Shown piece after piece: positions 7,561 through 32,558 of a stretch of 64,000 nt of DNA. The notes below the pieces were generated by a model that was not told the DNA's origin, searched no databases, and was given only the letters and a program-made list of their open reading frames with translations. The position numbers and the translations under genes are program-made. The stretch comes from an uncultured Rickettsiales bacterium (GTDB lineage Bacteria; Pseudomonadota; Alphaproteobacteria; Rickettsiales; JALZUV01), in NCBI GenBank assembly GCA_964654855.1, contig CAZZJS010000008.1, positions 4,220 to 68,219 on the forward strand, given 5' to 3'. The stretch's first letter is position 1. Every line of letters starts with the position of its first letter.

Positions 7561-7607
7561 TGGTGGAGGATACAGGAGTCGAACCTGCGACCTCTTGAAT
7601 GCAAATC
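7561..7607 (-). repeat. att direct repeat (copy 3) = 3'-terminal 47 nt of tRNA-Ala
   Basis: TGGTGGAGGATACAGGAGTCGAACCTGCGACCTCTTGAATGCAAATC is identical to 32483-32529. Confidence 0.92.
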
Positions 7608-7724
7608 TTAATTTATATAAATACCCATAAATCACTGTAGGTATATTAGAAGATATTTATCAATGGCTTAAACCCATATATTTTGTTCTTGTGGTATCTA
7701 TAGAGGTGTGCGAAGTTCTATGTG

Positions 7725-7746
7725 TTGGTGCCTATTTGGTGCCTAT
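7725..7746 (+). promoter_or_regulatory. perfect 11-bp tandem direct repeat (TTGGTGCCTAT x2); candidate integrase arm-type or regulatory site
   Basis: TTGGTGCCTATTTGGTGCCTAT lies just upstream of the int B start codon (7759). The 19-nt core GGTGCCTATTTGGTGCCTA recurs at 17438-17456, at the other end of island B. Confidence 0.45.
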
Positions 7747-7758
7747 AATGGAGATAAA

Positions 7759-8925
7759 ATGTCAAATACAGTGAATATCACTAAGCGCTTTGTGGATAGC
7801 AAAGGGGCTGAACCGAAGGATCAAACCTATTGGGATAGTGCTATCCGAGGCTTTGGATTGAAGGTAACTCCGAAGGGGCGAAAAGTCTATTTGTTCAAAT
7901 ATCGCAATATGGCTAAAACTCAGCGCAAAGCTACGTTGGGAGTGCATGGCAATATCACATGTGAGCAAGCGCGTAAAATCGCGCAACAATGGTCGCATGA
8001 GGTATCACAGGGTAATGACCCCGCTGGCAGAAAACAGATGATAGGCGAGTCCCCTACGATTGCTGAATTATGTGATCGATACCTAAATCAATATGCCAAA
8101 CACTACAAAAAAGAGAGCAGTGTTGAATTTGATAGAATTCAGATTGAGAAGCGCATTAAGCCATCAATAGGCAATTTGAAGATAGCAACGATAAACCAAA
8201 ATGATATTACGCGCTTACACCATCAAATGCGTGAAACACCTACCCAAGCGAATAGGGTTTTGGCTGTTCTCTCCAAAATGTTCAATTTGGCCGAGAAATG
8301 GGGTTTGCGCCCCGATATGACGAATCCGGTACGAAACATTGACAAATACCCCGAAAAAGCGCGTGAGCGATTCTTATCGCAAAAAGAGGCGCAACGATTG
8401 CTTGCAGTGCTGGATGAAGAGGAGGAAATGGGGATTGAATCGATTTATGTTATTTCTCTCATCCGTTTGTTAATTTTTACGGGTGCGCGATTGCGAGAGA
8501 TTATGCATGCAAAATGGGAGTGGCTAGATATGAAAAAAGGCTTTCTGCATTTGCCGGATAGTAAAACGGGCAAAAAAACGATTCAATTATCGGCACCCGC
8601 TATATCAATATTAAAGAAACTCCCAAAGCAGGAGAAAAATCCTTACATCATTTGCGGAAAGGTTGAGGGGATGCCTCTAAACAATGCGCGCAAGCCGTGG
8701 CTGCGTATTCGTCAAAAAGCAGAACTCGAAGATGTGCGCTTGCATGATTTACGGCATAGTTTTGCTGCCTTGGCTATTGAGGCAGGAATACCGCTTTACC
8801 ATGTTGGGAAATTGTTGGGGCATAAACAATCTCGCACAACAGAGCGCTATGCACACTTAGCGGATGACCCAATCAAAGCAGCGGCAGAATTAGTAGGAAA
8901 GCAGTTGGATAGCCTCAATGGATAA
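7759..8925 (+). CDS. int: P4-type tyrosine integrase (DUF4102 arm-binding N-domain)
   Basis: Track ORF starts at GTG 7708. ATG 7759 has a GGAG SD. N-terminus ITKRFVDS...YWDSAIRGFGLKVTPKGRKVYLFKYR. Catalytic ARLREI...HDLRHSFA...LLGH...RYAHL. Confidence 0.9.
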   Translation: MSNTVNITKRFVDSKGAEPKDQTYWDSAIRGFGLKVTPKGRKVYLFKYRNMAKTQRKATLGVHGNITCEQARKIAQQWSHEVSQGNDPAGRKQMIGESPTIAELCDRYLNQYAKHYKKESSVEFDRIQIEKRIKPSIGNLKIATINQNDITRLHHQMRETPTQANRVLAVLSKMFNLAEKWGLRPDMTNPVRNIDKYPEKARERFLSQKEAQRLLAVLDEEEEMGIESIYVISLIRLLIFTGARLREIMHAKWEWLDMKKGFLHLPDSKTGKKTIQLSAPAISILKKLPKQEKNPYIICGKVEGMPLNNARKPWLRIRQKAELEDVRLHDLRHSFAALAIEAGIPLYHVGKLLGHKQSRTTERYAHLADDPIKAAAELVGKQLDSLNG

Positions 8926-17503: not shown

Positions 17504-17549
17504 TGGTGGAGGATACAGGAGTCGAACCTGCGACCTCTTGAATGCAAAT
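17504..17549 (-). repeat. att direct repeat (copy 2) = 3'-terminal 46 nt of tRNA-Ala
   Basis: TGGTGGAGGATACAGGAGTCGAACCTGCGACCTCTTGAATGCAAAT is identical to 32483-32528. Confidence 0.92.
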
Positions 17550-17741
17550 TAAGTAACTCGTGATATCGCCACGTTACTACAAATCATCCTAGGTTTCCAT
17601 AAGTTACTAATTTATATAAATTAGAAAGGATTTTCTCATGACAATTACTGCTACACAATACGCTCTGTTTCTCTCTATTTCCCTTATTATTCCCTTATTA
17701 ATTTGGCTGACTTCTTTAATAAGAACTGCTTTAATAAGATT

Positions 17742-18923
17742 ATGCCCAAAGCCAAACTTACTAAGCGTTACATCGAATCGTTACCCTTCATGGAGAAAGG
17801 CCAGCAGCTCTACTGGGACACAGAAATGAATGGCTTTGGCGTATGTGTTGGCAAAAAGTCAAAAAGCTATTTGGTGCAACGTGATGTACATGGTCGTGGA
17901 GTGCGCTATACGATCGGCAAGCACGGAATATTTACTACTGAACAAGCACGTAAGCAGGCACAGCAGCTTCTAACACAAATGGCGCAGGGTATTAACCCCA
18001 ATCAAATTCGTGAAGAAAAGCGCATCAAAGGCATGACGTTGGCTGATCTGTGGAAGCAGTATGAAGAAAATGCACGTACACGCCTTACCGCTAATACACT
18101 TTATGTGTATGAGAAGTTCGTCACTATCCAGTTTGCGGATTGGCTAAATAAGCCCGTTGCAGAGCTTACTAAAGAAATGATGGTCAAGCGCCACCGCAAG
18201 ATTACCGAAGAATCAAGCAAGTCGATGGCAAATAGCTCCATGCATACGTTACGCGCACTCTATAATTACGCTATGATAGAGAATGAGAGCTTAACTAACC
18301 CTGTTGACGTACTTTCGCAAAAGAAACTTTGGCATGCGACAACAAGGCGACAATCGGTTATTAAAGAGCATCAGTTGGCTGCTTGGTATGCTGCGGTGAT
18401 GAATCTGCAAAACACAACGATTCGTGATGCGCTGCGTTTTCTGCTATTTACAGGTTTACGCAAGATGGAAGCGCTAACGCTCACATGGGATCAGGTGGAT
18501 TTAGAAGCTAAGAGTTTCAAGGTGCTAATCACCAAGAATAAACAACCGCTAGAGTTACCACTTAGCGACTTTCTATACGACATGCTGCTGGTACGTTCTG
18601 AGCATAAAGGCGACTCACCCTATGTCTTCCCCGGTGGTGGAGCAAAAGGTCATTTAGTAGAGCCGAAAAAAGCAGTGAAAGCGGTTATTCAAGAATCAGG
18701 TGTGGATTTTATGATTCATGATTTACGCCGCACTTTCATTACCACGGCAGAACGGCTTGATATATCGGCCTATGCATTGAAGCGGCTCGTGAATCACAAG
18801 AACAGTAATGATGTGACAGCGGGTTATATCGTGATGGATGTAGAGCGTTTGCGTAAACCTATGGAAGAAATTGCATTGTATTTCTGCGAACAGGTCAAAA
18901 GTGCCAAAGAGATAATTGTATGA
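17742..18923 (+). CDS. int: P4-type tyrosine integrase (DUF4102 arm-binding N-domain)
   Basis: Track ORF starts at TTG 17703; ATG 17742 (MPKAKLTKRYIESLP) is preferred. YWDTEMNGFGVCVGKKSKSYLVQ. Catalytic GLRKMEA...HDLRRTF...LVNH...AGYIV. Confidence 0.9.
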   Translation: MPKAKLTKRYIESLPFMEKGQQLYWDTEMNGFGVCVGKKSKSYLVQRDVHGRGVRYTIGKHGIFTTEQARKQAQQLLTQMAQGINPNQIREEKRIKGMTLADLWKQYEENARTRLTANTLYVYEKFVTIQFADWLNKPVAELTKEMMVKRHRKITEESSKSMANSSMHTLRALYNYAMIENESLTNPVDVLSQKKLWHATTRRQSVIKEHQLAAWYAAVMNLQNTTIRDALRFLLFTGLRKMEALTLTWDQVDLEAKSFKVLITKNKQPLELPLSDFLYDMLLVRSEHKGDSPYVFPGGGAKGHLVEPKKAVKAVIQESGVDFMIHDLRRTFITTAERLDISAYALKRLVNHKNSNDVTAGYIVMDVERLRKPMEEIALYFCEQVKSAKEIIV

Positions 18924-19441
18924 GTGTTGTAAAGCTGGAGCCTAATGAGGCTGAATATATTGAAAAGGTGAAACAAAAGAAGTGCCAACTTGATAGTTTT
19001 TTGCGTAACTGTTCTTACGATCCTAATAGCCCATGGGGAGAGCAATTTGCGTACTGGGCTAAATTTAAAGAAATAGTTGGAAACTTTAACAATGACCTCA
19101 GCTTTTTAGCCTCCATGCGTGCTAAAGAGTTTCTAGTTGAGCGGTTTAAGGGGATTGAGCTTGATATGGGAAGTAAACCGCAGGGCGCAAAAGGCTTAGA
19201 TATTGACGTTCTTACAAACGAAAATGAACGAATTATTGCTGAAATTAAGACCACCGTTCCTTATCAACTTAATTTTGGTGCCAACCAGAAAGTGTCAATT
19301 AAAATAGATTTGGAAAAACTACGCACTGCAGAAGCAGACTACAAGTTTATGATGGTAACTAATCAAGAAGCGTACGATATTTTGTGCGGAGAGGCATACA
19401 GATTGTTAACTGAAGAGATTGAAATAATTTGTTTGTTTTAG
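18920..19441 (+). CDS. hypothetical protein with PD-(D/E)xK-like motif (173 aa)
   Basis: ATGA overlap with the integrase stop. GLDIDVL-x11-IAEIKT fits the D...ExK pattern of restriction-endonuclease-fold proteins. No Vsr motifs. Confidence 0.45.
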   Translation: MSVVKLEPNEAEYIEKVKQKKCQLDSFLRNCSYDPNSPWGEQFAYWAKFKEIVGNFNNDLSFLASMRAKEFLVERFKGIELDMGSKPQGAKGLDIDVLTNENERIIAEIKTTVPYQLNFGANQKVSIKIDLEKLRTAEADYKFMMVTNQEAYDILCGEAYRLLTEEIEIICLF

Positions 19442-19562
19442 CTTTTACGAATTGTAAATTTGTGACTTCGATATAAATAATGCTCTGATTAAAGTATCCT
19501 GTAAAATGCCCTGTTGACCTATTTGCTTATATAAACAATAAGTAAAGAAATGGAGATCAGTA

Positions 19563-20831
19563 ATGAGTAAGTCGAGTGCCGTCAGAATAAAAACAAAACG
19601 CAATACTTTAGGTCTGACGCAGAAAGAATTAGCTATAAAAGTTGGGTTAAATGAAAATGGTGAGAGAACTGTAAGAGGCTGGGAAAGTGGCCAGCATAAA
19701 CCTAGCGAAAAGAAGCTAGCGGAAATACTTAGCATTGATGCAGCCTATCCATTTAAACATGATGGCAAGACTGAGAAATTTAGATTTATTGACCTATTTG
19801 CGGGCATCGGTGGAATACGACTTCCCTTCCAACAAGCAGGTGGGAAGTGTGTGTTTAGTTCCGAATGGGATCGTTTCTCACAACAAACTTACCATGCTAA
19901 CTTCGGTGAAATGCCAAGCGGTGATATTGTGCCGATTAAAGCCTCTGAGGTTCCAGCACATGATGTCTTACTGGCGGGTTTCCCATGCCAAGCATTTTCA
20001 CAAGCTGGATTGAGAAAAGGGTTCTCTGATACTAGAGGAACTATGTTCTTCGAGATTCAAAAGATTCTTGCTTACCATAAGCCTAAAGCCTTTCTTCTTG
20101 AGAATGTTAAGCAGTTGAAGGGGCACAACAAAGGGGAAACCCTTAAAACTATACTTTCAATTCTACGTGGTGAAAAAATTGCAGAAATACCTAATGACGT
20201 AAATATGAGCGAGGAAGCCAGAGAATCTCTCTCGACACGTTTAAATTACGAGGTGGACTTTAGGGTGATTTCTTCAAACTTATTCGGTGTCCCGCAAAAA
20301 AGGGAAAGAATCTATATTGTTGGATTCAACAAAGATAAATTTTCTTCACAACTAGATATGGATAAATTCTTTTCATCCTTAGAGAAGTTCCATTGTGAAA
20401 CTGTACTGGGTGATGTTCTTGAAGAGAATTGCACTGTTGATGAAAAACACACGATATCTGACCGTTTGCTTGCAGGACACGAAAGAAGGAAGCGCGAGCA
20501 TAAAGCGAAAGGCAATGGCTTTGGTTTTAGTCTCTTTGATAAAACTAGCAAATACTGCAATACAATCAGTGCTCGGTACTACAAAGATGGGTCAGAGGTT
20601 CTGATAGATCAGTCTGATATTAATGCAAACCCTAGAAAGCTTACCCCTCGGGAGTGCGCTAGGATTCAAGGTTTCCCAGAAAATTATATCGTAGATGCAG
20701 TATCGAATACGCAGATATACCGTCAATTTGGCAATTCTGTTTCAATGCCCGTGATTTCTGCAATTGCCCAAACTTTGGTTGATGTAATGCTTTCAGAGTG
20801 TTTGGATAGCAAAAGCAAATTGAGTAAGTGA
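19563..20831 (+). CDS. DNA (cytosine-5)-methyltransferase with N-terminal XRE-type HTH
   Basis: HTH LGLTQKELAIKVGLNE. C5-MTase motifs I FIDLFAGIGGIRLPF, IV GFPCQAFSQAG, VI LLENVKQL, VIII QKRERIYIVG, IX-X LTPRECARIQGFP / RQFGNSVSMPV. Confidence 0.92.
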   Translation: MSKSSAVRIKTKRNTLGLTQKELAIKVGLNENGERTVRGWESGQHKPSEKKLAEILSIDAAYPFKHDGKTEKFRFIDLFAGIGGIRLPFQQAGGKCVFSSEWDRFSQQTYHANFGEMPSGDIVPIKASEVPAHDVLLAGFPCQAFSQAGLRKGFSDTRGTMFFEIQKILAYHKPKAFLLENVKQLKGHNKGETLKTILSILRGEKIAEIPNDVNMSEEARESLSTRLNYEVDFRVISSNLFGVPQKRERIYIVGFNKDKFSSQLDMDKFFSSLEKFHCETVLGDVLEENCTVDEKHTISDRLLAGHERRKREHKAKGNGFGFSLFDKTSKYCNTISARYYKDGSEVLIDQSDINANPRKLTPRECARIQGFPENYIVDAVSNTQIYRQFGNSVSMPVISAIAQTLVDVMLSECLDSKSKLSK

Positions 20832-20900
20832 AAATTAATGGAGATAAAGTGTTAAATCCGATAAAAGATCTGTAAAGGCATGTTTTAAGGAGTTTTACAG

Positions 20901-22484
20901 ATGAATCTTGAAGATCTAGAGGGTTGCATAGGTAAATTAAAGCAAGCGCTATCGACTGTTGATAATAAAAGCCCTGTTAAAATTAGTGAACAGGCTTGGG
21001 AAAAAGTTATTGCTGGATACAGCTCCTTATACCCGAGAGACAATGTATTTGTAGTTGATGGCCATACATTGGTCACTTCCACGTCCGAAGAACTCTCAAA
21101 GTATATCAGCTGTCAGGAGATACCTGTGTGGTTCTCAGCTTTAGGTTATTTTAAAGCACTGAAAGGTTACAAAGAAGCGCTTGACCAAATTGCCCAAAAA
21201 ATGGGATTCGGAAAAAGAGATGACACAGAGGCTCGTGAAGTCTTTGCTTTGCTGCCTGATACCGACTGGCGAGTCAAACTTAAGTCAGAGCATGTACAGT
21301 TGATGGATCAGGTTATTGATTCTATATTTACTGCTGGTGACGCAAATAAGATTCAGCGCTTTATAAGTGATGGTGAGTGGTCAGGAATACACAAAAATGG
21401 TAAAACGGGCCGGCATTTAGAGCGAGACTTTGATTGGGCAGAGTCTGCAATAATGAAAGTAGTTGGTGTCACACAAACTGCTGCTGCCGGCAGGTTCAAT
21501 TTATTAAAAGTATTAGATAATATTGAATTTAATCATTCAGACCTTACATACGGATCTACCCTTCCTCAACTTGTTACTAAAACTAGCGAAGAACGCTTAA
21601 AAAGCGGTCAAAACGAGATTTTTTATGGAGCACCGGGTACTGGTAAATCTTATGTAATCAATCAAAAATGCGCTGCAAATAGTGCAAATGTAGTACGGAC
21701 TGTTTTTCACTCGGATACTCAAAATAGTGATTTTATAGGAGCTTTAAAGCCAGCTACGAATGTTGATGGTGGCGTGTCTTACCGGTTTTCTGCGGGGCCA
21801 TTTGCGCTTGCGTTGTTAAGAGCTTACCAGAACCCTTCTGAGATGCATTATTTGGTCATTGAGGAGCTTAACCGTGCGCCAGCAGCATCTGTGTTTGGCG
21901 AATTATTTTTGTTATTAGACAGAGATGAAAGCGGCGCTAGTCAGTATGATGCTGACTTTCCATCCGAGGAATTCCAAAATTGGTGGAATGAAAGCACTGG
22001 AACTACTGGTGAAAAGTTAAAGCTACCCTCCAATCTTACTATATTTGCTTCAATGAATAGCGCAGACCAAGGGGTCTTTCCATTAGACACAGCATTTAGA
22101 CGTCGCTGGATGCAGACGTACGTTCCCATTGATTATGGAAATGCATCTGAGGGGAGTGTCGAAATTTCAATTGATGGCCCTGACCCTGTAAAGGTACAAT
22201 GGAGCAAGTTTGTAGAAAAATTGAATTACTATCTAACAAATCAGTTGGGTGCCAGCATTCCAGAAGATCGCTTGGTCGGTCAAAGATTCTTATCACCTGC
22301 TGACTTGGAAGATGGCAAGCTCCCTGGCAAGCTTCTTATTTATCTTTGGGATGATGTTTTGAGACACCATGGTCGTGAGATACTGTTCAGCAAGTCGATT
22401 AAAACCTATGGAGACTTGGCACTTAAGGCTAATAGTGGTGATCTAATTTTCTCGACAAAATTTATAGAGATGATGAGTGAGTAG
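20901..22484 (+). CDS. McrB-like AAA+ (GTPase-type) restriction subunit, LlaJI R1-like
   Basis: AAGGAG SD. Walker A FYGAPGTGKSY, Walker B LVIEELNRAPAASVFGELFLLLDR, then ASMNSADQG...LDTAFRRRW. This is the McrB/AAA_5 signature series. Confidence 0.85.
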   Translation: MNLEDLEGCIGKLKQALSTVDNKSPVKISEQAWEKVIAGYSSLYPRDNVFVVDGHTLVTSTSEELSKYISCQEIPVWFSALGYFKALKGYKEALDQIAQKMGFGKRDDTEAREVFALLPDTDWRVKLKSEHVQLMDQVIDSIFTAGDANKIQRFISDGEWSGIHKNGKTGRHLERDFDWAESAIMKVVGVTQTAAAGRFNLLKVLDNIEFNHSDLTYGSTLPQLVTKTSEERLKSGQNEIFYGAPGTGKSYVINQKCAANSANVVRTVFHSDTQNSDFIGALKPATNVDGGVSYRFSAGPFALALLRAYQNPSEMHYLVIEELNRAPAASVFGELFLLLDRDESGASQYDADFPSEEFQNWWNESTGTTGEKLKLPSNLTIFASMNSADQGVFPLDTAFRRRWMQTYVPIDYGNASEGSVEISIDGPDPVKVQWSKFVEKLNYYLTNQLGASIPEDRLVGQRFLSPADLEDGKLPGKLLIYLWDDVLRHHGREILFSKSIKTYGDLALKANSGDLIFSTKFIEMMSE

Positions 22485-23721
22485 CGAATCACCACTGATT
22501 CTTTATGATAGGCTCTCTATCGATAGTCTTCAGGATAAGTATCGGCCTTATTACGATTTGTTATTAGATAAAGACCCCCTTTCCATACAAGGAAAAAGAA
22601 GGTTGCATTTCTGTGGTATGGTATGTCCAAAAGGTGAGGCGCCAGCACTGTTTGTACCGCGAGGGTATGATAACAGTGAGGGCATAAGTGGAGCAAAATC
22701 TATAATGCAAATGCTTGCCAAGTACGGTAAGCAGCTTCCTAATAGGAAAGGAGAAAGCCATCAAAGTGATGGTAACTCTGCATTCGCTTCTCTTGTTCTT
22801 GATATAGCTACGGATTATAAGCAAAATGGATTGTTCAGCCAGAGGGTTAAAATTAAAACAAATGCGCCTAAAGCTACTGATTGGAAGAGAACACTGATAA
22901 AGTGCCTGCCTATGTTTTCTAACGATGGTTCGCCAGTTTATAGTCGAACCGTAGGTAATAAGTTCCTTGATCTTGCGCATAATGATCTAGCAGTCATGCA
23001 AGCTGCTACTATTTGTGAAATAATTGAAACTCATGGCTGGTGGCTTGCGATAGATCAATCGGCAATATCCATGTTATCTAGAATCCCAAAGCCACGAGTT
23101 CCAAAAGAAGCGTATGCGTCAAAGCTTCGTCGTTTCAAGCAGTTGCTATATGATGAGTACTCACTTTCATTGGTAGACAAGATCATTGCATATTGGGAAT
23201 ATGATGCTGGGCAGCATGATGGTAATATGCTCTGCGGCTTAAAAGATTTTTCATCTGTTTGGGAAAAGATGCTCAAAGACTTGGTAAGTGATGAGTCCAG
23301 TAAGTGGAACAGCTTAATCGCGAAGCCTGCCTATCAAGATCAGAATAATAATTTGAGGCCCCGTAGTAAGGGAGGGGTTATTGATATTGTGGTAGAGGGT
23401 ACAGATCGTATTGTGATCGCGGATGCCAAGTATTATGATGCATCAAGTGCGGAGAATGCACCAGGCTTGGGAGATATCCTTAAGCAGTCTTTTTATGTGC
23501 AAGCCGTCAGAAAGCTCATCGTTGATAAGAATATAGAAAGCTACTTTGTGTTTCCTGATAATCAACGAAAGAGCTATCTAAAAGAAACTAGTTTCACAGA
23601 TATAAACATTAAAAGTGTAAATGGGTTGTCTGAAAAGACTAAATGCCTCTACGTGCCTATGAACACAGTTATTAACCGGTATATTCAGGATGAGCGGTAT
23701 AGTTGGTTACCTCCTCAGTGA
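22477..23721 (+). CDS. McrC-like nuclease subunit, LlaJI R2-like
   Basis: Overlaps the McrB-like gene by 8 nt. The C-terminal segment VIDIVVEGTDRIVIADAKYY matches the McrC-type PD...D-x-K core. Confidence 0.7.
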   Translation: MSSESPLILYDRLSIDSLQDKYRPYYDLLLDKDPLSIQGKRRLHFCGMVCPKGEAPALFVPRGYDNSEGISGAKSIMQMLAKYGKQLPNRKGESHQSDGNSAFASLVLDIATDYKQNGLFSQRVKIKTNAPKATDWKRTLIKCLPMFSNDGSPVYSRTVGNKFLDLAHNDLAVMQAATICEIIETHGWWLAIDQSAISMLSRIPKPRVPKEAYASKLRRFKQLLYDEYSLSLVDKIIAYWEYDAGQHDGNMLCGLKDFSSVWEKMLKDLVSDESSKWNSLIAKPAYQDQNNNLRPRSKGGVIDIVVEGTDRIVIADAKYYDASSAENAPGLGDILKQSFYVQAVRKLIVDKNIESYFVFPDNQRKSYLKETSFTDINIKSVNGLSEKTKCLYVPMNTVINRYIQDERYSWLPPQ

Positions 23722-23774
23722 TGATAGCTTACAGTGCACTCCATTGTTTGATTTTGGTTAGACGATATGAAAAA

Positions 23775-23803
23775 ATGCTGTTCAGCGTGACACTGAACAG
23801 CAT
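23775..23803. terminator. bidirectional hairpin terminator between convergent mcrC-like and alpA-like genes
   Basis: Perfect 11-bp stem ATGCTGTTCAG-cgtgaca-CTGAACAGCAT. The T-run is strong on the minus strand (AAAAAA at 23770-23775 on plus). Confidence 0.65.
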
Positions 23804-23830
23804 TTCAAGTAAATTCCTTAATTAATAAAA

Positions 23831-24061
23831 CTATTCATAGCACCATTGAGAAGGTCTCGGGTGAGTATACAAATTTTTAGTGATAAACAATTCTATGTCT
23901 TTAAGACGATAGCGTATACAACCTCTTGAAAAATATACAAACGGAAGCCCTCCAGCCGGCCCATACCCTGTACAACGCCCGTAAGATAGTGAAGAAGGGC
24001 TGATATGAAGAATTTCAGAAACCTCTTTAGTGGTTAGTAATGTTTTTTTATTTTGCTGCAT
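23831..24061 (-). CDS. AlpA/excisionase-family HTH protein
   Basis: ATG 24061 with an AGGAG SD. LLTTKEVSEILHISPSSLSYGR...PFVYFSRGCIRYRLKDIELFI fits the HTH_17 pattern. Confidence 0.7.
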   Translation of the reverse strand: MQQNKKTLLTTKEVSEILHISPSSLSYGRCTGYGPAGGLPFVYFSRGCIRYRLKDIELFITKNLYTHPRPSQWCYE

Positions 24062-25116
24062 GGCTTTAAATCTCCTATTGTTCACCGTTAACAAAATGAA
24101 GATCTGGAACAAAGTTGTACCCTTATCCAGATCTTCTGGATTAAGGTTACAACTGACGCATGTATATGCTGAAGTTACTAAACGGTGCCCTAATGCAAGC
24201 TTTGCTTGCGGCTCATAACTCGCCCTAATTTAAACACAAAATATCATAGTCAAAAAATACGTCAACTATTTTTGGACTGACTTAGTGTCTTAGTTAACGG
24301 CTTATCGCAATGGAGCCGCATAGGAGTTTGCAATTCTCATTTTCTGAAATATTTATTATCTGAGTAGGATGAGATACAGCAGAACAAAAACAATCAAATT
24401 TTCCTTGCAACATACTAATTTGGCATATTTGCTTTTGCAGCAGGTATTGAAAGTACTGTGGATGCAAAGGGTTGATCGTTTGGAGCAATCTTTGCCTGTT
24501 TTTATCAAGACGCCGTCTTCGTAAAGTGATGGGAGTTTTGCGTAGATTGGGCGTTTTACACCATCAATGGATAGTTTTGAGCATCTTTGGCGTAGCGGGT
24601 ATCATACGATTAATCGAAGCAAAAAAGAAAATCCAAATTAAGAAATTAGTATCTAACGAACAAACTGCGCAGAAATTTCAGGGCAGGATTTCTTGGTTGG
24701 TTTCAGGGCAAAAAGCACAAAAAAAGCAGCTTTTCGGCAAGAACCAAGTGTTACTAACATACCCCTCAATCCCCATAGTCTTCTCTATTCCTATGAATAG
24801 CTAACTATCAATTCCTTTCAATCTAACTCCCTTTTTATCATTACACTGGAATACAGAATCACTTTTAGAAAAACCTGTGAATGTTGATACAGCAAATAGC
24901 ACTCAATCACTGCAATAGCAGCTTAATGTGTAACATGCTAATTTAACAATGAAGGAACGATGCAAATGAATGATATGCATGGAAGGAGGTTTTAATCCTG
25001 CGCAAATACGTCCAGTGGACGCCAAACCAATCAAGGCTAGCTTTTGCACACTGAATCGACATAATATCGTTTATAGAAAGAAAAGCAGATGCTAGAGATA
25101 AAACTGAGATTGTACC

Positions 25117-26400
25117 ATGACAGAATCCACCATTGCTTGCCCACAATGTTCTCACAAGATTGAACTTACTTCATCGTTGAAGGATTCTTTAGCGGCACCT
25201 TTATTAGCGGATGCGCAGAAACAGTTTGAAGAACGCCTAGCACTTAAAGATACAGACATCGAACAACGTGAAGCGAGTTTGCGAGAACAACAACAAGCCA
25301 TTAAAGCGGCACAGCAGGCTATCGATAAGCAGGTGGAAGAGAAGTTAGATGCAGAACGCGCTAATGTCGCCAAGCAAGAGGCTGACAAAGCCAAACGTGC
25401 CGCACAATTAGACATACAGGCAGAGAAAGATAAAGCCGTTGAGTTACAGGAGTTACTTAGCCAGCGTGACCAGAAGCTAGAAGAAGCCCGCAAGCAACAA
25501 GCTGATTTTTTAAAGCAACAGCGCGCGTTGGAAGAGAAAGAGCGTGAAGTCGAACTAACCATCCAAAAGCAGGTAACAGCGACACTTGGTCAAGAACGCA
25601 CGAAGATGCAGCAGGAAGTAACGGCAGCTAGTGAATTAAAGCTACGTGAGAAAGAAGAACAAATGGAGTCGATGAAGCGCACCATTGAAGAGTTAAAGAA
25701 AAAGGGTGAGCGTGGATCACAGCAACTTCAAGGTGAAGTCGTGGAGATGCAGTTAGAAGAAGAGTTACAAGCTCGCTTTAGTCATGATGTGATTACTCCT
25801 GTGCCTAAAGGTGAGCATGGCGGTGACGTGCTGCAAACCGTTTGCCAAGTTACGGGCATAGAGTGTGGAAAAATCTTATGGGAAACTAAGCGCACCAAAA
25901 ACTGGACAGAAGGCTGGTTATCTAAACTGCGTGATGATCAACGTGCAGCTAAAGCAGAAATTGCTTTGATGATGTCCTACGCTTTACCTGCTGATGTCCA
26001 AACATTCGACCAACGTGATGGTGTTTGGATATGTGCACCACAATATGCAGTGCCGCTTGTAACAGCGCTACGTCATACGTTATTGGAAGTTGCTAATAGC
26101 AAACAGTCGCAAGTGGGTCAGAAGTCGAAGATGGAATTGGTATATGCTTACCTAACGGGGCCGCAGTTCAGACACCGTGTAGAAGCGATTATTGAGAAGT
26201 TCGATGACATGCAAGCCGATCTAGTCAAAGAGAAGCGTTTTACTCAAAAGCAATGGGCTAAGCGCGAAACGCAGATGCAAGGAGTACTAGACTCCACTAT
26301 CGGTATGTATGGTGACTTACAAGGTATTGCAGGCAAAGCGTTGCAAGAAATTGATGGGCTGGATGTTCCGTTGCTAGAAGCTGATGAAGAAGCGGCGTAG
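25117..26400 (+). CDS. DUF2130-like protein (Zn-ribbon, long coiled coil, conserved C-terminal domain)
   Basis: CPQCSHKIE, then about 190 aa of E/K/Q-rich coiled coil, then GEHGGDVLQTV...GKILWETKRTKNWTEGWLSKLRDDQR, which is typical of DUF2130. Confidence 0.65.
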   Translation: MTESTIACPQCSHKIELTSSLKDSLAAPLLADAQKQFEERLALKDTDIEQREASLREQQQAIKAAQQAIDKQVEEKLDAERANVAKQEADKAKRAAQLDIQAEKDKAVELQELLSQRDQKLEEARKQQADFLKQQRALEEKEREVELTIQKQVTATLGQERTKMQQEVTAASELKLREKEEQMESMKRTIEELKKKGERGSQQLQGEVVEMQLEEELQARFSHDVITPVPKGEHGGDVLQTVCQVTGIECGKILWETKRTKNWTEGWLSKLRDDQRAAKAEIALMMSYALPADVQTFDQRDGVWICAPQYAVPLVTALRHTLLEVANSKQSQVGQKSKMELVYAYLTGPQFRHRVEAIIEKFDDMQADLVKEKRFTQKQWAKRETQMQGVLDSTIGMYGDLQGIAGKALQEIDGLDVPLLEADEEAA

Positions 26401-26505
26401 TCTGTAGTAAAGGAAATTACTGTCATCGGTGCGGCACAAAAAGGGCGACCCCGAAAGACCGCCCTTAGGTTTGCAATTTACACTGCTAGTTAAAGTTGGT
26501 GGGCG

Positions 26506-27609
26506 TTACGCCCAGTCAATTTCCCCTGAATTATAGCGCTTCATACCTTTGAAGATAAAACGATTTGAATACCCTAGCGCATCCCAAAAAGTGTAAACTT
26601 CTTTTACCTCTAAATCCTTCATAGGATTCCCTTTATTATCAAGATTAACGAAATTTGTTGTAGGATTAATATCAAACCCTTTTTGTTCAAGGTAGCGCTT
26701 AATAGAATAGGTTGCCACACGATAAATTCCCATCATAGCACGTACGTATTTGGGACTACCTGGTTTGCATTGCAAGGCACGAATCTTTTTCCCTTCAAGG
26801 TTAAGATTCTGCAATTTAACATGCACCCTATAAGGTGGATAAGAAGATGCCGAGTGATCATTCTTACAGAATATTGTTTTGATGCTGTCACGAATTTTGT
26901 TTATGTCATCCTTTGGGTCGCGGATTAAAAACCCGTGCCAATGTAAATGACCGAAGCCATACTCGTGTTCACCGTGGGGGTAGTTGTATGAAATGTCGAG
27001 TCCTAAACCAATGACTACATTCTCTAGAGCTGGATGACGACGAATGCGGTCACCTGTTTTGCGACATTGATCTGTAGAAAAACTCCGTTTTATGTTTGGT
27101 AAAACCTTTTTAAGTTTTTCTGCTGTTTCTGGTAGACGATCAATGGGTATTGCATATTTCGGAGGAATAATAGTCATATGGTAAATTGCATCTGAACGGC
27201 AAGTCTCCACTAAACGAGTCATTTGATATGCATGACTCATACGTAAATATGCAGAGCAAGCTGGACAAATGAATTGATCGCATGGCGTATGGTCCGACAA
27301 TTTATTACGATTTGGGTACATCTGATTTTTCAGCATAAAGTTTGCTAATTCGCACTCTTTCAGCTTGTTTAGCGCCTTATAAAGACGCTTATCAATTTTA
27401 AGTAATTTTTCTGTTTTCTTTATATTACGAATGATCGACTTTGCAGATTCAAAGCCTTTCTTTTTGTCTTTCTCACATACAATCTTCTTATTCTCCTGAC
27501 GAGTAAATGCATTATATTCACGCATAAGAGCAAACGCTTCTTTCCCATGGTTTTTTAGAATACTCTCGGTCAAATTTTGCTTTTTTGGTTTGGGTTTCTT
27601 GACAGTCAT
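26506..27609 (-). CDS. putative rolling-circle replication initiator (HUH endonuclease-like)
   Basis: 367 aa. HUH-like GHLHWHGFLI, downstream double-Tyr segment GIYRVATYSIKRY, Cys cluster CDQFICPACSAY. Start and stop abut the upstream HTH gene. Confidence 0.5.
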   Translation of the reverse strand: MTVKKPKPKKQNLTESILKNHGKEAFALMREYNAFTRQENKKIVCEKDKKKGFESAKSIIRNIKKTEKLLKIDKRLYKALNKLKECELANFMLKNQMYPNRNKLSDHTPCDQFICPACSAYLRMSHAYQMTRLVETCRSDAIYHMTIIPPKYAIPIDRLPETAEKLKKVLPNIKRSFSTDQCRKTGDRIRRHPALENVVIGLGLDISYNYPHGEHEYGFGHLHWHGFLIRDPKDDINKIRDSIKTIFCKNDHSASSYPPYRVHVKLQNLNLEGKKIRALQCKPGSPKYVRAMMGIYRVATYSIKRYLEQKGFDINPTTNFVNLDNKGNPMKDLEVKEVYTFWDALGYSNRFIFKGMKRYNSGEIDWA

Positions 27610-28097
27610 TACGCACCCCCATTCAGTTGGTTGAGGTTATCACGAAGATACGCTTCAACATCGCTGCGGTGATAGCGGACAAGTGAGCCAATTTTATGAT
27701 ACGGAAGATTTATGCCTAAACCGCTATAGCGCGACTTCTGTAAAGGCTTCACTGAAATACGAAGATAGTGAGCGACTTCCTTTTCAGTCATTAGATCATG
27801 CATCTCAGACAGGTTCTTGGTTTGTGCCGTGGATAAGGTTGTTGCTTTAACCGCAAAGGACAAAATCTTGTCGATCAGCTTCTGTACACTGAAGCGTTCG
27901 GGTTTACCTTCTTCATTGATAAGCGTCATAGGTTCAACAGGTTCTTCGACGCGGACAACACCAAGTCCATCAAACTCCTTGTGATAGGTGATACGGGTAG
28001 TCAATGAGGACTTTGCCCCATAATTAATGTGAATCATGATATGATTCCCTTCTGCCCACTCAGGTTTCCGGAATCCCATGTAAAAGCGAGTGAGCAT
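27609..28097 (-). CDS. hypothetical protein with C-terminal HTH_17 (excisionase-type) domain
   Basis: LMTEKEVAHYLRISVKPLQKSRYSGLGINLPYHKIGSLVRYHRSDVEAYL. ATG start. Its stop overlaps the Rep-like start. Confidence 0.6.
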   Translation of the reverse strand: MLTRFYMGFRKPEWAEGNHIMIHINYGAKSSLTTRITYHKEFDGLGVVRVEEPVEPMTLINEEGKPERFSVQKLIDKILSFAVKATTLSTAQTKNLSEMHDLMTEKEVAHYLRISVKPLQKSRYSGLGINLPYHKIGSLVRYHRSDVEAYLRDNLNQLNGGA

Positions 28098-28332
28098 GCC
28101 CTTTAATGGGTATACTCACGGAACTTAAAGCATTTGCTAGAAGCGGCTTTGCCTAAAAGCCTGTCGTGTACAATCTAAATTATTATCAAACATGTTGCTT
28201 GAAAGAATTTAAGTTAGGTAGATAACTTTGGCTTAACGCTACCCTCATTAGTACATGCACGATCATACACTAATATCTGTTAAGGAGTCAAGATTTTGGC
28301 ATGCTGTTTTTTTACTAAATTTAGCAAACGCT

Positions 28333-28800
28333 TTATGAAGACTCAGGTTTTCCAAATATTTTTTCTGCATCAGTAATTTGCTGATACCAATAGTCTTGCT
28401 GTTCTGCTGGCTGTGAAGCTACAACTTGAAATATTCTATAAGCGTTAGCACTCACATCTTTGCTTTCAGAATCAAACGAGAATAAATCACGCATCTCGAC
28501 ACGTAATAGTCTTGAAGCTTTATAAGCGACTTCAATAGGGCAGCGATTCTCACCGCGCTCTATGCGTGAAATATGTTCTTTAGAAACGCCTACTGAATCA
28601 GCTAATGTTTGCTGAGTAATTCCCGCAATACCGCGAAGCGTTTTCAGGCGTTTACCAAATAGCTTTAATAATTTTTTCTTTTCCACCGCAATATAATCGC
28701 ATATTGCCACTGAACTTCCACGCCATTTACTGTTGATTTTAATGCAGGTTTTGCTAAATAATCGTGATAATTGCCTACTTGTGGCGATACCTAGAAACAA
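28333..28800 (-). CDS. XRE-family HTH transcriptional regulator (start uncertain)
   Basis: FGKRLKTLRGIAGITQQTLADSVGVSKEHISRIERGENRCPIE. The N-terminal part has no ATG. Candidate starts are TTG 28800, GTG 28710 and GTG 28686; the shorter forms leave about 100 bp of divergent promoter region. Confidence 0.75.
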   Translation of the reverse strand: MFLGIATSRQLSRLFSKTCIKINSKWRGSSVAICDYIAVEKKKLLKLFGKRLKTLRGIAGITQQTLADSVGVSKEHISRIERGENRCPIEVAYKASRLLRVEMRDLFSFDSESKDVSANAYRIFQVVASQPAEQQDYWYQQITDAEKIFGKPESS

Positions 28801-28811
28801 AATGGTGAAAT

Positions 28812-29450
28812 ATGATGCCTAAGATCGAAGAATTATCGCAGCTAAATGAGCTACGTAAACAGGGGGCTTTAAGCGAAGCTGAGTTTGAAGCGCAGAAGAA
28901 AAAGATTCTGGAAGGTGATGCTGAAACAGCAGAACGAGCTGCATCAGAAGAAACATCCAAGCAAGGTAAGTCCAAGTACGTAAACTGGGAAGATGTACCG
29001 CTAAAGCATAAGTTCTGGCTCCATATGTTGTTGGGATTGTTTGCAGGGCCGCTTGGGGTGATCCCATTTGCGCTATTCCCATCCTATATGAAGAACAAAA
29101 AAGGCGGCGTTGATCGGGCCGGTAAAGCGATGAAAGCTCTCTTTGCTTGCGGCTTTGTTATTTTGTGGGTGATTGCTGTTTTTAATCCAAGTTCTGATTT
29201 TACCTTGCCGTTATGCGATAGTGCCGCAGTGGAACAGACGCTTGGTCAGTTAGTCGCAAACGGCCCACAAAGTAAACTGGTGAATATCAAGCTACTGCAA
29301 GTCACGAATGCCGCAGAGATTTCTTATGATGCACAGCTTCTTGAGCGCGCTTGTACTGCTGATCTACTGTTAAATACAGGCAATGAGTCCGTGCGCTTTA
29401 AAGTCACTAAAGGCAAAGCGTTTGGCACATTCCTAGTGCAGACATTCTAA
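28812..29450 (+). CDS. membrane protein with N-terminal SHOCT domain (paralog 1)
   Basis: SHOCT-like IEELSQLNELRKQGALSEAEFEAQKKKILEG. Two TM segments flank FPSYMK. The C-terminal domain has conserved Cys (CDSAAV...SYD...C). Confidence 0.7.
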   Translation: MMPKIEELSQLNELRKQGALSEAEFEAQKKKILEGDAETAERAASEETSKQGKSKYVNWEDVPLKHKFWLHMLLGLFAGPLGVIPFALFPSYMKNKKGGVDRAGKAMKALFACGFVILWVIAVFNPSSDFTLPLCDSAAVEQTLGQLVANGPQSKLVNIKLLQVTNAAEISYDAQLLERACTADLLLNTGNESVRFKVTKGKAFGTFLVQTF

Positions 29451-29453
29451 GTT

Positions 29454-30086
29454 ATGCCCAGCACCGATGAACTGATTAAGCTGAGTCAACTGCATCAGGA
29501 TGGCATCCTAACGCAGGAAGAGTTCGAAGCTGAAAAGCAGAAGATTCTAAATGTTACGCCTACTACGCAAAAGCATGTTCCAGCTTCGGAAGTCGAAGTA
29601 ACGCTGCTGAAAGGCTGGGATGATATACCACTGCGGTGGAAGCTGTGGTTCCAGCTTATAGTGAGTATTTTCCTGCCGCTAATAGGATTGTTGTTGATGG
29701 TGTTCTTACCCTCCTATTCCAAGACAGAAGATGAAAAAGCACAAAAGGTTAGGAATACATCAAAGAGCATTTATATGGTGGCCATTCTAGCTGCATGGGG
29801 GCTGTTTGTACTAGTGGAAAGCGTAACCTTCCCTGAATGTGACAGCAGCAGGGTAATAGAGCGTTTAGACACGCTTATCGAGAAAGAGCCTTTATTGAAA
29901 TTCGCTAATATTAAGCCGCTATGGCATGTGGTAGTGTCTGAGACTTCCTATGATGAAGGTGCTGGCAAGCGTGTTTGTAAAACAGAAATGCTGCTGGAGA
30001 ATGGCAAGGACTTCACAATACGCTATGAGCTAATAGAAGAAGTCACTGAAGCGGGCGCCTTTTCGATAAACTTGCTCTATAAGTGA
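29454..30086 (+). CDS. membrane protein with N-terminal SHOCT domain (paralog 2)
   Basis: Starts 3 nt after paralog 1. TDELIKLSQLHQDGILTQEEFEAEKQKILN. Shares W(E/D)D(V/I)PL, (F/L)PSY.K, CDS..V, NIK.L, SYD and L.NG with paralog 1. Confidence 0.7.
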   Translation: MPSTDELIKLSQLHQDGILTQEEFEAEKQKILNVTPTTQKHVPASEVEVTLLKGWDDIPLRWKLWFQLIVSIFLPLIGLLLMVFLPSYSKTEDEKAQKVRNTSKSIYMVAILAAWGLFVLVESVTFPECDSSRVIERLDTLIEKEPLLKFANIKPLWHVVVSETSYDEGAGKRVCKTEMLLENGKDFTIRYELIEEVTEAGAFSINLLYK

Positions 30087-30101
30087 TGCTGTCATAGATG
30101 A

Positions 30102-31121
30102 CTAATCTGTAATTCCACCAGTTTTATGAATTGTAGGCTGGTGTTTCTTTTGAATCTCAGAGGCAATTTCTTGCGCAAGTTTGTCAGACACTTCATTAAT
30201 TGCTAACTCAGCTGCTTTGCTACCATCGTTGGAGGTGAGACAAAATGCGATTTGCTGTTTAGGCAATAACACAACTTTAGCACGGTTTAATGTATTGCTA
30301 CCGTCATGTGTAAGCACCGCGCCGTTATTTAAGGAATGCATTCCAGAGCTTGTATAGGCACTTCCTTGCCCTGTTAAGACTTCTTGCGAGTGATTTAACG
30401 TATAGCTGTTTTCCATACGGTGCTGCAAAAACTTCATCCAATCTCCCATAGAGGCGTGTATTCTTCCCGCTGCATCATAAAGTGACGGGTTGTCCTCATT
30501 AATGGCTTGTCCGTTTTCTTTACTGTGTCCCCAAGGTTGGTTTGGAATATCGGACGCAGAGTCTGCCATTGAACCAAAACCAGCAGTTTGCATGTTGAGT
30601 GGTTCGAATATCCTTTCTGTGACCAGCGTCTGGTAGCCTTTGCCTGTTTGTTTTTCTGCTATAGCGCCTAACAAAATGTACCCGACATTACTATACTCAA
30701 ATTGATCTTTTGGAGTGGGAGGCGCATCACTCAGAATGTTTGATATAATGTCCTTTTTATCCAGACTCATATCTCCTTCGTAATTCACCGCCAATCCCGC
30801 TGAATGTGTGAGTAGTTGAGAAACCTTGATGTTCGCAATATCAGGATGCAATGGTTGGTCTGTAAAAATATCTTCTAAACGATCAGATAACTTTAGACGA
30901 TTTTCACCAACCAGTTGCTGTATAAGAAGCGCACTGACAGCTTTACCGCAAGAGCCAAAGTGAAATTTATCATCCGTGGTAACAGGGGTTTCATTTCCAC
31001 GCTTACGAACCCCCGAAGCAAAACTACTAATTTGTCCATCAAATAAGACAGACACGCCTAATGCTGGCAAATCATGCTCTTTTCTTTTTTGCTCAATTAT
31101 CTCTTGCGTGCCTTCAAACAT
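30102..31121 (-). CDS. serine hydrolase, beta-lactamase/PBP-like family
   Basis: SxxK FGSCGKAV, YxN YSNVGYILLG, plus LLTHSAGL. 339 aa with no signal peptide evident. Confidence 0.8.
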   Translation of the reverse strand: MFEGTQEIIEQKRKEHDLPALGVSVLFDGQISSFASGVRKRGNETPVTTDDKFHFGSCGKAVSALLIQQLVGENRLKLSDRLEDIFTDQPLHPDIANIKVSQLLTHSAGLAVNYEGDMSLDKKDIISNILSDAPPTPKDQFEYSNVGYILLGAIAEKQTGKGYQTLVTERIFEPLNMQTAGFGSMADSASDIPNQPWGHSKENGQAINEDNPSLYDAAGRIHASMGDWMKFLQHRMENSYTLNHSQEVLTGQGSAYTSSGMHSLNNGAVLTHDGSNTLNRAKVVLLPKQQIAFCLTSNDGSKAAELAINEVSDKLAQEIASEIQKKHQPTIHKTGGITD

Positions 31122-31184
31122 ACAACTTTATTGTAAATGAAAAACCTTACAGTTTGATTAAGCTCATCTTAGTTAGCACTAGTG

Positions 31185-32192
31185 CTACTGCCTTACGCTG
31201 TAACAGCGTATAAGCGCTTTATCTTCTCCACTATTAATAGTCATGCCTTCTGTAGCAAAGTAATGGTGCGCTTTGCGGTATTGCGCTTGGGTTAAATGTT
31301 CTGCTGCTACGTTAAATGCAGCAAGGGGTGACTCCATGGCATAGGGAAGCTTTAGAAAATGCGATGCAGCAATGGCGAGATTTCCTTTTAAAGCAGCAGA
31401 AGCGGTGGCAATGCCGTGCCTTTGCCAGAAGCAATCTTTGTTAGGGGCTGAAAAACGGTGTATGGCAGAGATAGCAATATCGACTTGTTCTTGTTTGATC
31501 ATGTTATGCCAGCGGGTAATGAGCTGTTGGCGTAACGGGTTTAATAGCTTGTTACTTCCTTGGTGCAATTGTCCCTCATGATAGATATGCCGCATGTATT
31601 TCTTACGTGGTGAGAACGCTTCTATTGGTTCATTCAGGCCAAACATATCATAACAAGCACATAGCAAGGCACGATGGCCTGAGGATAATGTCACGACACG
31701 GTGCGGACTATCATAATCTTCGCTATAGCCGGCAATAGAGGTGCCTTTTCCAGTACCGTTACTGTCCCGATCTGTAGGAAACACCTTTCTGCCAATACCT
31801 ATAATGCCGCTACGGTTCCAAGCGATACAAAGCTCATCTCCGCTTTCCCAATCGCTGGCCTTAGCGCTATCAACGCCGCAAATAACCGTAATATCAAGAT
31901 AGCGCGTATGAAGCTGTTTTGATGCTTTCTGCAATGCTTGTGCAAACTCGGTTACTTCTAGCGCTTGCTTGCGTCCTGCATAATCCAAACGACCACAGGC
32001 AAAGGGAGCAAAGAAATGGCCACCGGGCAGCACTACTGCATGCAGCTCTTGCCAGTTAGATTTTAGGATGGTTTGGACGGATTGTTCCAACAGTGCAATA
32101 CGCTGGGCATTAATGTTAGTGTCTATGGCTTTATCGCCAGAAGCACAGATCGTTACGATATTAAGTGGCTTCTTGGTATTTGTTTCTGGCAT
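31185..32192 (-). CDS. hypothetical protein, weak carbon-nitrogen-hydrolase-like pattern
   Basis: 335 aa with alternating beta-like strands. GRKVFPT and LLCACYDMFG resemble the Lys and Cys motifs of nitrilase-superfamily enzymes, but the catalytic Glu motif is not evident (VVLPGG). Confidence 0.5.
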   Translation of the reverse strand: MPETNTKKPLNIVTICASGDKAIDTNINAQRIALLEQSVQTILKSNWQELHAVVLPGGHFFAPFACGRLDYAGRKQALEVTEFAQALQKASKQLHTRYLDITVICGVDSAKASDWESGDELCIAWNRSGIIGIGRKVFPTDRDSNGTGKGTSIAGYSEDYDSPHRVVTLSSGHRALLCACYDMFGLNEPIEAFSPRKKYMRHIYHEGQLHQGSNKLLNPLRQQLITRWHNMIKQEQVDIAISAIHRFSAPNKDCFWQRHGIATASAALKGNLAIAASHFLKLPYAMESPLAAFNVAAEHLTQAQYRKAHHYFATEGMTINSGEDKALIRCYSVRQ

Positions 32193-32482
32193 AATCGGTT
32201 CCTTTTGTTGTTATGCCCCGAAGGCTACAAAAGGCACAAAGCCCGTCAATTCGTTGATGAGCAGGCATGAGTTGGCTATAGTAATGGCAGAAAGTTTCGA
32301 TAGTGGCGTTGCTTCATAACAAGAGTAAACAGGTAAAAGCGCTAAAAACGAGTCTGGAACTACCCCACAGCACCCTGCGTTTCTACGTCTGTTCCTTATT
32401 ATAGCCTTATTAATTTGGAAGCGAGCATTCTTCGCTGATCGCGTGACGACCAAGTAAGCTATTGAACAATATTATGAAATAA

Positions 32483-32558
32483 TGGTGGAGGATACAGGAG
32501 TCGAACCTGCGACCTCTTGAATGCAAATCAAGCGCTCTACCAACTGAGCTAATCCCCC
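32483..32558 (-). tRNA. tRNA-Ala (anticodon UGC), CCA encoded
   Basis: Reverse complement GGGGGATTAGCTCAGTTGGTAGAGCGCTTGATTTGCATTCAAGAGGTCGCAGGTTCGACTCCTGTATCCTCCACCA. Cloverleaf folds, G3:U70 identity pair present, anticodon loop TTTGCAT. Confidence 0.95.

Follow-up and report, generated by a model that had tools for sequence, protein, structure and literature searches.

We describe a three-gene cassette in a 64,000-nucleotide stretch of DNA from an uncultured Rickettsiales bacterium (GenBank assembly GCA_964654855.1, contig CAZZJS010000008.1, positions 4,220 to 68,219; hereafter the window, with coordinates counted from its first letter), in which an XRE-family regulator gene is transcribed divergently from two tandem paralogs, A and B, that each combine an N-terminal SHOCT motif, a pair of hydrophobic helices and a C-terminal domain (CTD). 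The structural part of this finding is firm: the cassette comprises a regulator and one or two proteins of the inner membrane whose small, probably disulfide-bonded domain faces the periplasm, and it is carried as the cargo of a genomic island. We regard it as an accessory membrane cassette of mobile islands that is linked to a regulator and combines a known motif, SHOCT, with an uncatalogued domain. With regard to function, we tentatively favor a regulator-controlled, envelope-acting exclusion or protection module, a reading to which we assign a probability of roughly 0.35.

The cassette and the recurrence of its gene pair

The cassette and its control region comprise the following features:

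28333..28710, minus strand: XRE-family (HTH_3) regulator gene, 125 amino acids (aa) from GTG 28710, the start given by independent gene callers
GTG 28686, minus strand: alternative in-frame XRE start, giving 117 aa
28333..28800, minus strand: maximal XRE open reading frame (ORF), 155 aa from TTG
28688..28707: candidate operator between the two possible XRE starts, GCAATAT-N6-ATATTGC, an inverted repeat with perfect 7-bp arms
28711..28811: divergent control region, 101 bp to the ATG of A, or 125 bp if the XRE gene starts at GTG 28686
28733-28762, plus strand: sigma-70-like site, TTGATT-18-AATAAT
28758 and 28767: repeated ATAATYG motifs within the control region
28812..29450, plus strand: paralog A, 212 aa
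28827-28910: SHOCT motif of A, residues 6-33
28986-29183: membrane module of A, residues ~59-124
29193-29447: predicted periplasmic CTD of A, residues 128-212
29454..30086, plus strand: paralog B, 210 aa, built like A
29466-29549: SHOCT motif of B, residues 5-32
29823-30083: CTD of B, residues 124-210

An earlier reading made from the letters alone (the sequence-only reading) had described two adjacent ORFs of 212 and 210 aa, 3 nt apart and of one architecture, divergent from an XRE gene that starts at GTG 28710 or 28686 and shares about 100 bp of control region with them; the coordinates, the measured distances and the paralogy all agree with that description. The two proteins align over their full length at 30% identity (E=4e-33), and they are not chance ORFs, since homologs of both reach E=1e-50 in an exhaustive search. 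The TAA stop of A (29448-29450) lies 3 nt before the ATG of B at 29454 and no clear Shine-Dalgarno sequence precedes the latter, on which grounds we propose that translation of B is probably coupled to that of A.

The regulator scores 43.1 bits against HTH_3 (PF01381; cutoff 23) and 40.2 bits against HTH_31 in Pfam, its C-terminal 50 aa match no family, and a domain search recovered no S24 or M78 peptidase domain in it, nor any other sensor or cleavage domain. Its similarity to the regulators in PADLOC is confined to the helix-turn-helix (HTH) level (HTH_VI, 8.6e-12; capH, 1.4e-8; control proteins of restriction-modification (R-M) systems). It thus shares with R-M C proteins, CapH and the cI/Cro-like controllers of phages an HTH_3 domain, small size, a divergent layout, a short shared region and a palindrome beside the gene start, but the likeness stops at a generic HTH, and DNA binding and regulation by the window protein are predictions. 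Within the control region, the eight sigma-70-like matches do not exceed the shuffled expectation of 9.6. The 7-bp arm of the window palindrome was reached in 49 of 500 shuffles; CGGCGC...GCGCCG palindromes also lie directly upstream of the XRE start at two other loci, L091 and L102, whose XRE proteins are orthologous to each other, and the arm lengths of these three palindromes, each equalled in 43-142 of 500 shuffles, are each weak when taken alone.

Contextual information was drawn from nine informative loci of the subgroup with two transmembrane (TM) helices, two further loci (L101 and L108) being too short to judge. In six of the nine, the membrane-protein gene is preceded at 55-190 bp by a divergent HTH_3 gene; these six are the window, L086 (protein P0005), L087-90 (P0008), L091/92 (P0007), L102 and L107 (P0014). 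Because the divergent XRE gene is present in these loci although the membrane proteins of the relatives share just 26-34% identity with A and the flanks differ in every case, we consider the pairing meaningful, and the XRE-membrane gene pair is a conserved cassette rather than a coincidence, which supports the sequence-only reading on this point. Integrase genes are found close to the pair in L086, L087 and L091; the order is integrase, XRE and SHOCT gene in L091/92, and integrase, an unknown gene, HTH_17, VapE and XRE, followed by the SHOCT gene and a tRNA-Ser, in L102. The regulators themselves range from 77 to 125 aa across the loci. In L086, the gene directly after that for the SHOCT-two-TM-CTD protein (3613-4083) codes for a predicted signal peptide and a CTD-like domain (PPCAS...RLCS); a putative alpha/beta-hydrolase gene follows it. 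A second, independent case of tandem duplication is provided by L094 (555-2504), where a 219-aa SHOCT-two-TM-CTD protein stands next to a 409-aa member with a Cys-rich C-terminal extension, with a transposase nearby and no XRE gene.

A SHOCT family with an uncatalogued periplasmic domain

When 1.84 billion cluster representatives were searched exhaustively with an HMMER profile, 419 matched at E<=1e-3, of which 46 reached E<=1e-10 and four E<=1e-30. The best 150 representatives were classified with the profile split into its SHOCT, membrane-module and CTD parts. The CTD is present in 106 of these 150. The commonest form (46 representatives) consists of SHOCT, one TM helix and the CTD, typically in 150-165 aa; about 20 representatives share the form of A and B, with SHOCT, the two-helix module and the CTD, with or without C-terminal extensions; 12 others join a lone N-terminal hydrophobic segment to the CTD without SHOCT; and SHOCT with the two-helix module also occurs with other C-termini. 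C-terminal extensions with PASTA or LprI domains are rare, being found in few relatives. The family of A and B is thus modular, sizeable and uncharacterized, with an N-terminal SHOCT on a membrane protein as its norm. The sequence-only reading had taken the N-terminal position of SHOCT on a TM protein as unusual, but this argument proves weak, because about 80 of the 150 best representatives carry an N-terminal SHOCT, one or more TM helices and the CTD, and N-terminal cases are already recorded in the paper that defined the motif (Eberhardt et al. 2013; PMC3581485).

The exhaustive search proved necessary to reveal the family: word-indexed searches, whether started from A, from B or from a profile of 35 sequences, recovered essentially the query proteins only. 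A metagenome scan with the TM and CTD alignment yielded five loci, of which two were new. A separate contig scan keyed on the SHOCT motif gave 80 SHOCT-only loci, mostly actinobacterial, which are uninformative on the full architecture and which we did not use as evidence. P0152, labeled 'PilE' in one source, was considered as a link to pilins and set aside, given that its resemblance to the family is limited to SHOCT and the TM segment, while its C-terminus is a separate, pilin-like one.

The Pfam SHOCT profile (PF09851), against which the sequence-only reading had suggested that its SHOCT-like N-terminal segments be checked, covers its full 28-position model in both proteins and scores 33.4 bits in A and 34.1 bits in B, above the gathering cutoff of 27; 84 of 105 aligned relatives likewise exceed the curated cutoff. 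In the AlphaFold2 (AF2) model of A the motif forms a helical hairpin of helices 3-16 and 22-49, with a predicted local distance difference test score (pLDDT) of 84-96. A and B share with the wider SHOCT family this 28-residue two-helix amphipathic motif; in that family a C-terminal position is typical but not obligatory, whereas in A and B the motif stands at the very start of the protein, ahead of a membrane module and a new extracytoplasmic domain. To our knowledge, no function has been established for SHOCT despite its wide distribution. Oligomerization was the subject of the sole experimental test of the motif, and the outcome was negative (PMC3581485); SHOCT-like modules have been predicted to tether domains to the inner leaflet of the membrane (PMC11237479).

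The remaining 85% of A and B has no match in Pfam, NCBIfam, PHROGs or PADLOC, and neither the membrane module nor the CTD is matched by Pfam in any of the 105 members. A suspected resemblance of the membrane module to PLDc_N (PF13396) found no support in the Pfam matches of any of these members. No literature study of the architecture was found, and no described family covers its membrane module or CTD, in line with the earlier remark that no function is known for it. Kyte-Doolittle windows place the hydrophobic helices at residues 67-85 and 105-123 of A and 68-86 and 106-124 of B, on either side of a conserved PSYxK; the AF2 model has them at 68-88 and 105-124 in A, with a short beta-hairpin (92-102) within the K/R-rich, putatively cytoplasmic PSYxK loop. 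The first of these helices (A 68-88; window 29013-29075) contains a near-invariant central proline, P80, followed by glycine in most members. P.CDS, NIK.L, SYD and R.C motifs are common to the CTDs of A and B, so that the two flanking helices, the CTD motifs and the second cysteine previously described are all borne out. C135 and C181 (A numbering) are the only residues conserved in at least 90% of the 105 aligned members; both are invariant in a 96-row CTD set, in which R179 is also conserved in at least 90%, and the overall signature of the domain is P-x-C-D-S ... R-x-C ... L-N-x-G. We propose that the two near-invariant cysteines probably form a disulfide.

Structure prediction of the CTD, another step that the sequence-only reading had put forward, gave a confident model: full-length A reached a mean pLDDT of 90.6 (105-row alignment), and the CTD alone a pLDDT of 95.5 and a predicted TM-score of 0.83. 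The domain contains helices 138-149 and 152-157 and four strands. Foldseek found no significant match to it in the PDB (best E 0.09-0.2; none at E<=0.001), BFVD returned nothing significant for the modeled structure, and the family profile had no sequence match in the PDB, the best (E 0.08) falling on the TM segments. The weak neighbors, at TM-scores of about 0.45-0.59, are cystatin-scaffold proteins, such as the phytocystatin/Affimer 6stj and tarocystatin 3ima, and NTF2-like domains, namely the N-terminal domain of PBP2a, TcpC (3ub1), TraH (5aiw) and RsgI9 (7sjy). Because these weak neighbors recur, we tentatively read the modeled CTD as a simple cystatin/NTF2-like roll, with one helix on a four-stranded sheet and a sequence signature of its own. 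The VirB8-like/NTF2-like conjugation proteins TcpC and TraH resemble the predicted layout of A and B in their succession of cytoplasmic tail, TM segment and extracytoplasmic alpha+beta roll. Compared with these and with cystatin-fold proteins, however, the CTD of A and B is the smaller domain, its 85 aa forming one main helix and four strands, and it has its own P.CDS...R.C...LN.G signature and Cys pair; furthermore, in contrast to the systems of TcpC and TraH, no type IV secretion system genes are found near A and B.

As for topology, in the 53 one-TM relatives the 15 residues before the TM helix contain on average 4.64 K+R, against 1.36 after it, and in the 25 two-TM relatives the 19-residue loop contains 5.72, against 1.08 after the second helix. 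By these positive-inside statistics the CTD is predicted to lie outside the cytoplasm in both forms. Beyond the K+R bias, we place it there because of the variants with only a hydrophobic segment before the CTD, the predicted secreted CTD-like gene product in L086, the PASTA and LprI extensions and the Cys pair.

The host island

The island and its surroundings contain, besides the cassette, the following features:

5749-7476: third integrase (DUF6538), further left
7708-8925: integrase of a second tandem island
17504..17549: distal attachment (att) site, an identical 46-nt copy of the tRNA-Ala 3' part, left island end
17647-17706 and 32359-32418: pair of 60-nt direct repeats (73% identity) containing doubled CCTTATTA motifs, immediately within the two island ends
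17703..18923, plus strand: tyrosine integrase with Phage_integrase and Arm-DNA-bind_3 domains
19563-23721: LlaJI-type R-M cluster of an HTH-fused C5 cytosine methylase, an AAA_5 (McrB-like) protein and an RE_LlaJI endonuclease
25117-26400: DUF2130 protein, after the LlaJI cluster
26506-27609, minus strand: 367-aa ORF of no family, overlapping the stop of the HTH_17 gene
27609-28097, minus strand: AlpA/excisionase-like HTH_17 gene
30102-31121, minus strand: beta-lactamase-fold (class C/AmpH-like) serine hydrolase, convergent with B and ending 15 bp from its stop
31185-32192, minus strand: 335-aa ORF with no Pfam, NCBIfam, PHROG or PADLOC match
32483..32558, minus strand: tRNA-Ala(TGC), whose 3' end is the proximal att site and the right island end

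The 46 nt of the tRNA-Ala 3' part occur three times in identical form (7561-7606, 17504-17549 and 32483-32528), which implies tandem integration of two or more islands at a single tRNA gene. The cassette lies on the tRNA-proximal island (17504-32483, 15 kb), which has no virion genes and is not a prophage. The 60-nt repeats plausibly represent arm-type sites of the integrase. Where the sequence-only reading had spoken of a repressor-controlled module on a mobile island, the att copies and integrase now supply the island and the comparison of loci supplies the recurrent pairing, with control by the repressor still a prediction. A and B themselves were recovered from this island only, in two assemblies (the marine metagenome JGI 3300000976 and one SRA assembly), and the sources give these proteins no name.

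Several of the accompanying genes deserve brief comment. By eye, the 367-aa ORF shows an HUH-like 'HLHWHGFL' and downstream 'YSIK' and 'YLEQK' motifs, which may mark it as the island's rolling-circle Rep or relaxase. The 335-aa ORF is 35% identical over its full length to the product of L087 5816-6808, which lies near another XRE-SHOCT pair, and could be a further recurrent cargo gene of such islands; its 'LLCACYDMFG' stretch looks nitrilase-like by eye. The beta-lactamase-fold hydrolase lacks an obvious signal peptide. An AAA_21 (AbiEii-like) ATPase is also present in the window.

Functional readings of the cassette

In the mechanism we favor, a dimer of the XRE protein would bind palindromic DNA in the 101-125-bp shared region and so set both its own expression and that of A and B. 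These two would enter the inner membrane, probably joined in a hetero-oligomer, with their CTDs exposed in the periplasm, where these domains would bind an incoming or envelope component. The outcome would be that the island-carrying cell is protected at its envelope by exclusion of phage or foreign-DNA entry rather than by cell killing. We favor envelope protection because the bulk of the conserved protein is placed outside the cytoplasm, because the gene duplicates and diverges (in the window and in L094), because it is carried on small islands of the integrase/AlpA/VapE type and because it travels with restriction and other conflict genes. Examples of the latter are the LlaJI cluster and DUF2130 gene of the island, the AAA_21 ATPase gene of the window, and the Eco57I methylase and SMC-like ATPase genes that adjoin the one-TM relative P0023. 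Recurrent tandem duplication, with paralogs diverged to 30%, is likewise what would be expected of surface-interaction proteins.

The closest functional parallel may be superinfection exclusion (sie) of the Sie2009 type. Lactococcal sie genes are found between the integrase gene and a regulator gene, and Sie2009-type proteins resemble A and B in being small and membrane-anchored, with most of their mass outside (predicted in the case of A and B), and encoded next to an integrase and an HTH regulator. The lactococcal prophage PLg-TB25 carries a 'SHOCT domain' ORF2 in this very position, between the integrase and transcription regulator genes (PMC5431838). Unlike the Sie2009-type genes, those for A and B lie on an island that is not a prophage and are divergent from the regulator gene, and searches of PHROGs and PADLOC detected no likeness of A and B to Sie2009-type proteins in sequence or profile. 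A more specific version, in which the XRE gene with A and B constitutes a new, self-contained envelope exclusion or defense system of small tRNA-integrated islands, whose CTD recognizes phage or foreign-DNA entry machinery and whose SHOCT motif serves in anchoring or signaling at the cytoplasmic face, is in our estimation speculative and on the unlikely side.

Several observations weigh against envelope protection. The support for it is drawn from sequence, models and context. A and B match none of the families in PADLOC-DB 2.0, and their PHROG matches are to SHOCT only; tblastn found no relatives in 50,697 phage genomes or in plasmids, and none were found in viral contigs, although the contig scans were limited to patterns and are weak negatives. 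Known exclusion proteins are mostly prophage-encoded, and the sie genes described so far are as a rule expressed together with the repressor gene and not divergently from it. The XRE proteins of the different loci share the HTH only (27-42% identity over ~55 aa); the XRE gene is absent from three of the nine loci, L085 (P0004), L094 (P0010) and L003 (P0003); P0004, which is 41% identical to A, is a single gene in a housekeeping-like, non-island context with no XRE gene; and the candidate operator of the window lacks statistical significance on its own. Finally, SHOCT and the CTD are predicted to lie on opposite faces of the membrane in the one-TM form, but would share a face if both helices of the two-helix form truly span it; to reconcile the two, either helix 1 would be re-entrant or the acidic N-terminal tail would be exported.

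The neighboring defense genes, the divergent arrangement of repressor and effector and the HTH-level resemblance of the XRE protein to the regulators of defense systems would equally fit an abortive-infection or toxin-like effector, in which the regulator represses membrane-damaging A and B proteins until infection or stress leads to a depolarized or permeabilized inner membrane. We regard this as unlikely: half of each protein is taken up by an outer domain, well folded and probably stabilized by a disulfide, for which a simple pore-former would have no need, each has just two hydrophobic helices, and the XRE protein carries no sensor or cleavage domain. Moreover, intrinsic toxicity is disfavored because family members occur without an adjacent regulator, as in L085, L094 and the one-TM relative P0023 of L106, which has no XRE gene. 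A type II toxin-antitoxin system with the XRE protein as antitoxin was rejected, in that the genes are divergent rather than in one operon and A and B belong to no toxin family.

P0004, which ranks among the closest relatives of A after P0003, bears on whether A and B are instead ordinary envelope proteins, for example scaffolds or adaptors of a periplasmic or secretion structure, that lie beside an island regulator by chance. In L085 (8001-11389) its gene is found 39 bp upstream of those for a prepilin peptidase (A24) and a secretin, with isocitrate lyase adjoining, in a region that is not an island. The sequence-only reading had named single core-genome homologs with physiological roles as a finding that would speak against it; P0004 fits this insofar as it is single and outside an island, but no role has been assigned to it. 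The absence of an XRE gene from L094, the wide occurrence of the one-TM form and the VirB8-like proteins TcpC and TraH among the weak fold neighbors point the same way. Set against these, six of the nine loci retain the divergent XRE gene while everything else around it changes, and A and B were found on this one island only; we accordingly hold an ordinary envelope role to be doubtful.

In a signaling arrangement, the periplasmic CTD would read an envelope cue and the SHOCT tail would bind or release the XRE protein, which would in turn control the HTH_17 and putative replication genes. The conserved pairing of XRE and membrane protein is consistent with this, as are the position of the window XRE gene, upstream of and on the same strand as the HTH_17 and 367-aa genes, and the presence among the weak fold matches of RsgI9 (7sjy), an anti-sigma factor, through its NTF2 sensor domain. 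However, because the XRE proteins, which vary in size, have nothing in common beyond the HTH, they offer no conserved partner surface; the orientation of the XRE gene to the island genes varies by locus while its divergence from the SHOCT gene is constant; and many family members have no regulator nearby. We therefore judge a sensor role to be quite improbable. A holin-like or lysis function, also raised by the sequence-only reading on account of small proteins with two hydrophobic helices under a repressor, can be dismissed as very improbable: holins usually have <150 aa and lie adjacent to the endolysin in a lysis cassette, whereas A and B have 210-212 aa with an 85-aa folded outer domain, and neither an endolysin nor a spanin gene accompanies them, the neighboring beta-lactamase-fold gene being in convergent orientation. 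Nor is the island a prophage, and no relatives were found in phage genomes or viral contigs. Gene orientation and architecture rule against a holin, and the lack of a lysin partner and the large folded periplasmic domain make lysis unlikely.

Were A and B to prove ordinary envelope proteins, the value of these observations would be limited to annotation. The CTD is a new domain that could be curated, and one subgroup of the family ties SHOCT to a dedicated regulator on mobile islands, together with a periplasmic domain that is uncatalogued and confidently modeled. The cassette is a compact, clonable three-gene unit in which both the role of SHOCT and the protection of the cell could be tested; if the more specific reading as a new envelope exclusion or defense system is true, it would provide the first assigned function for SHOCT.

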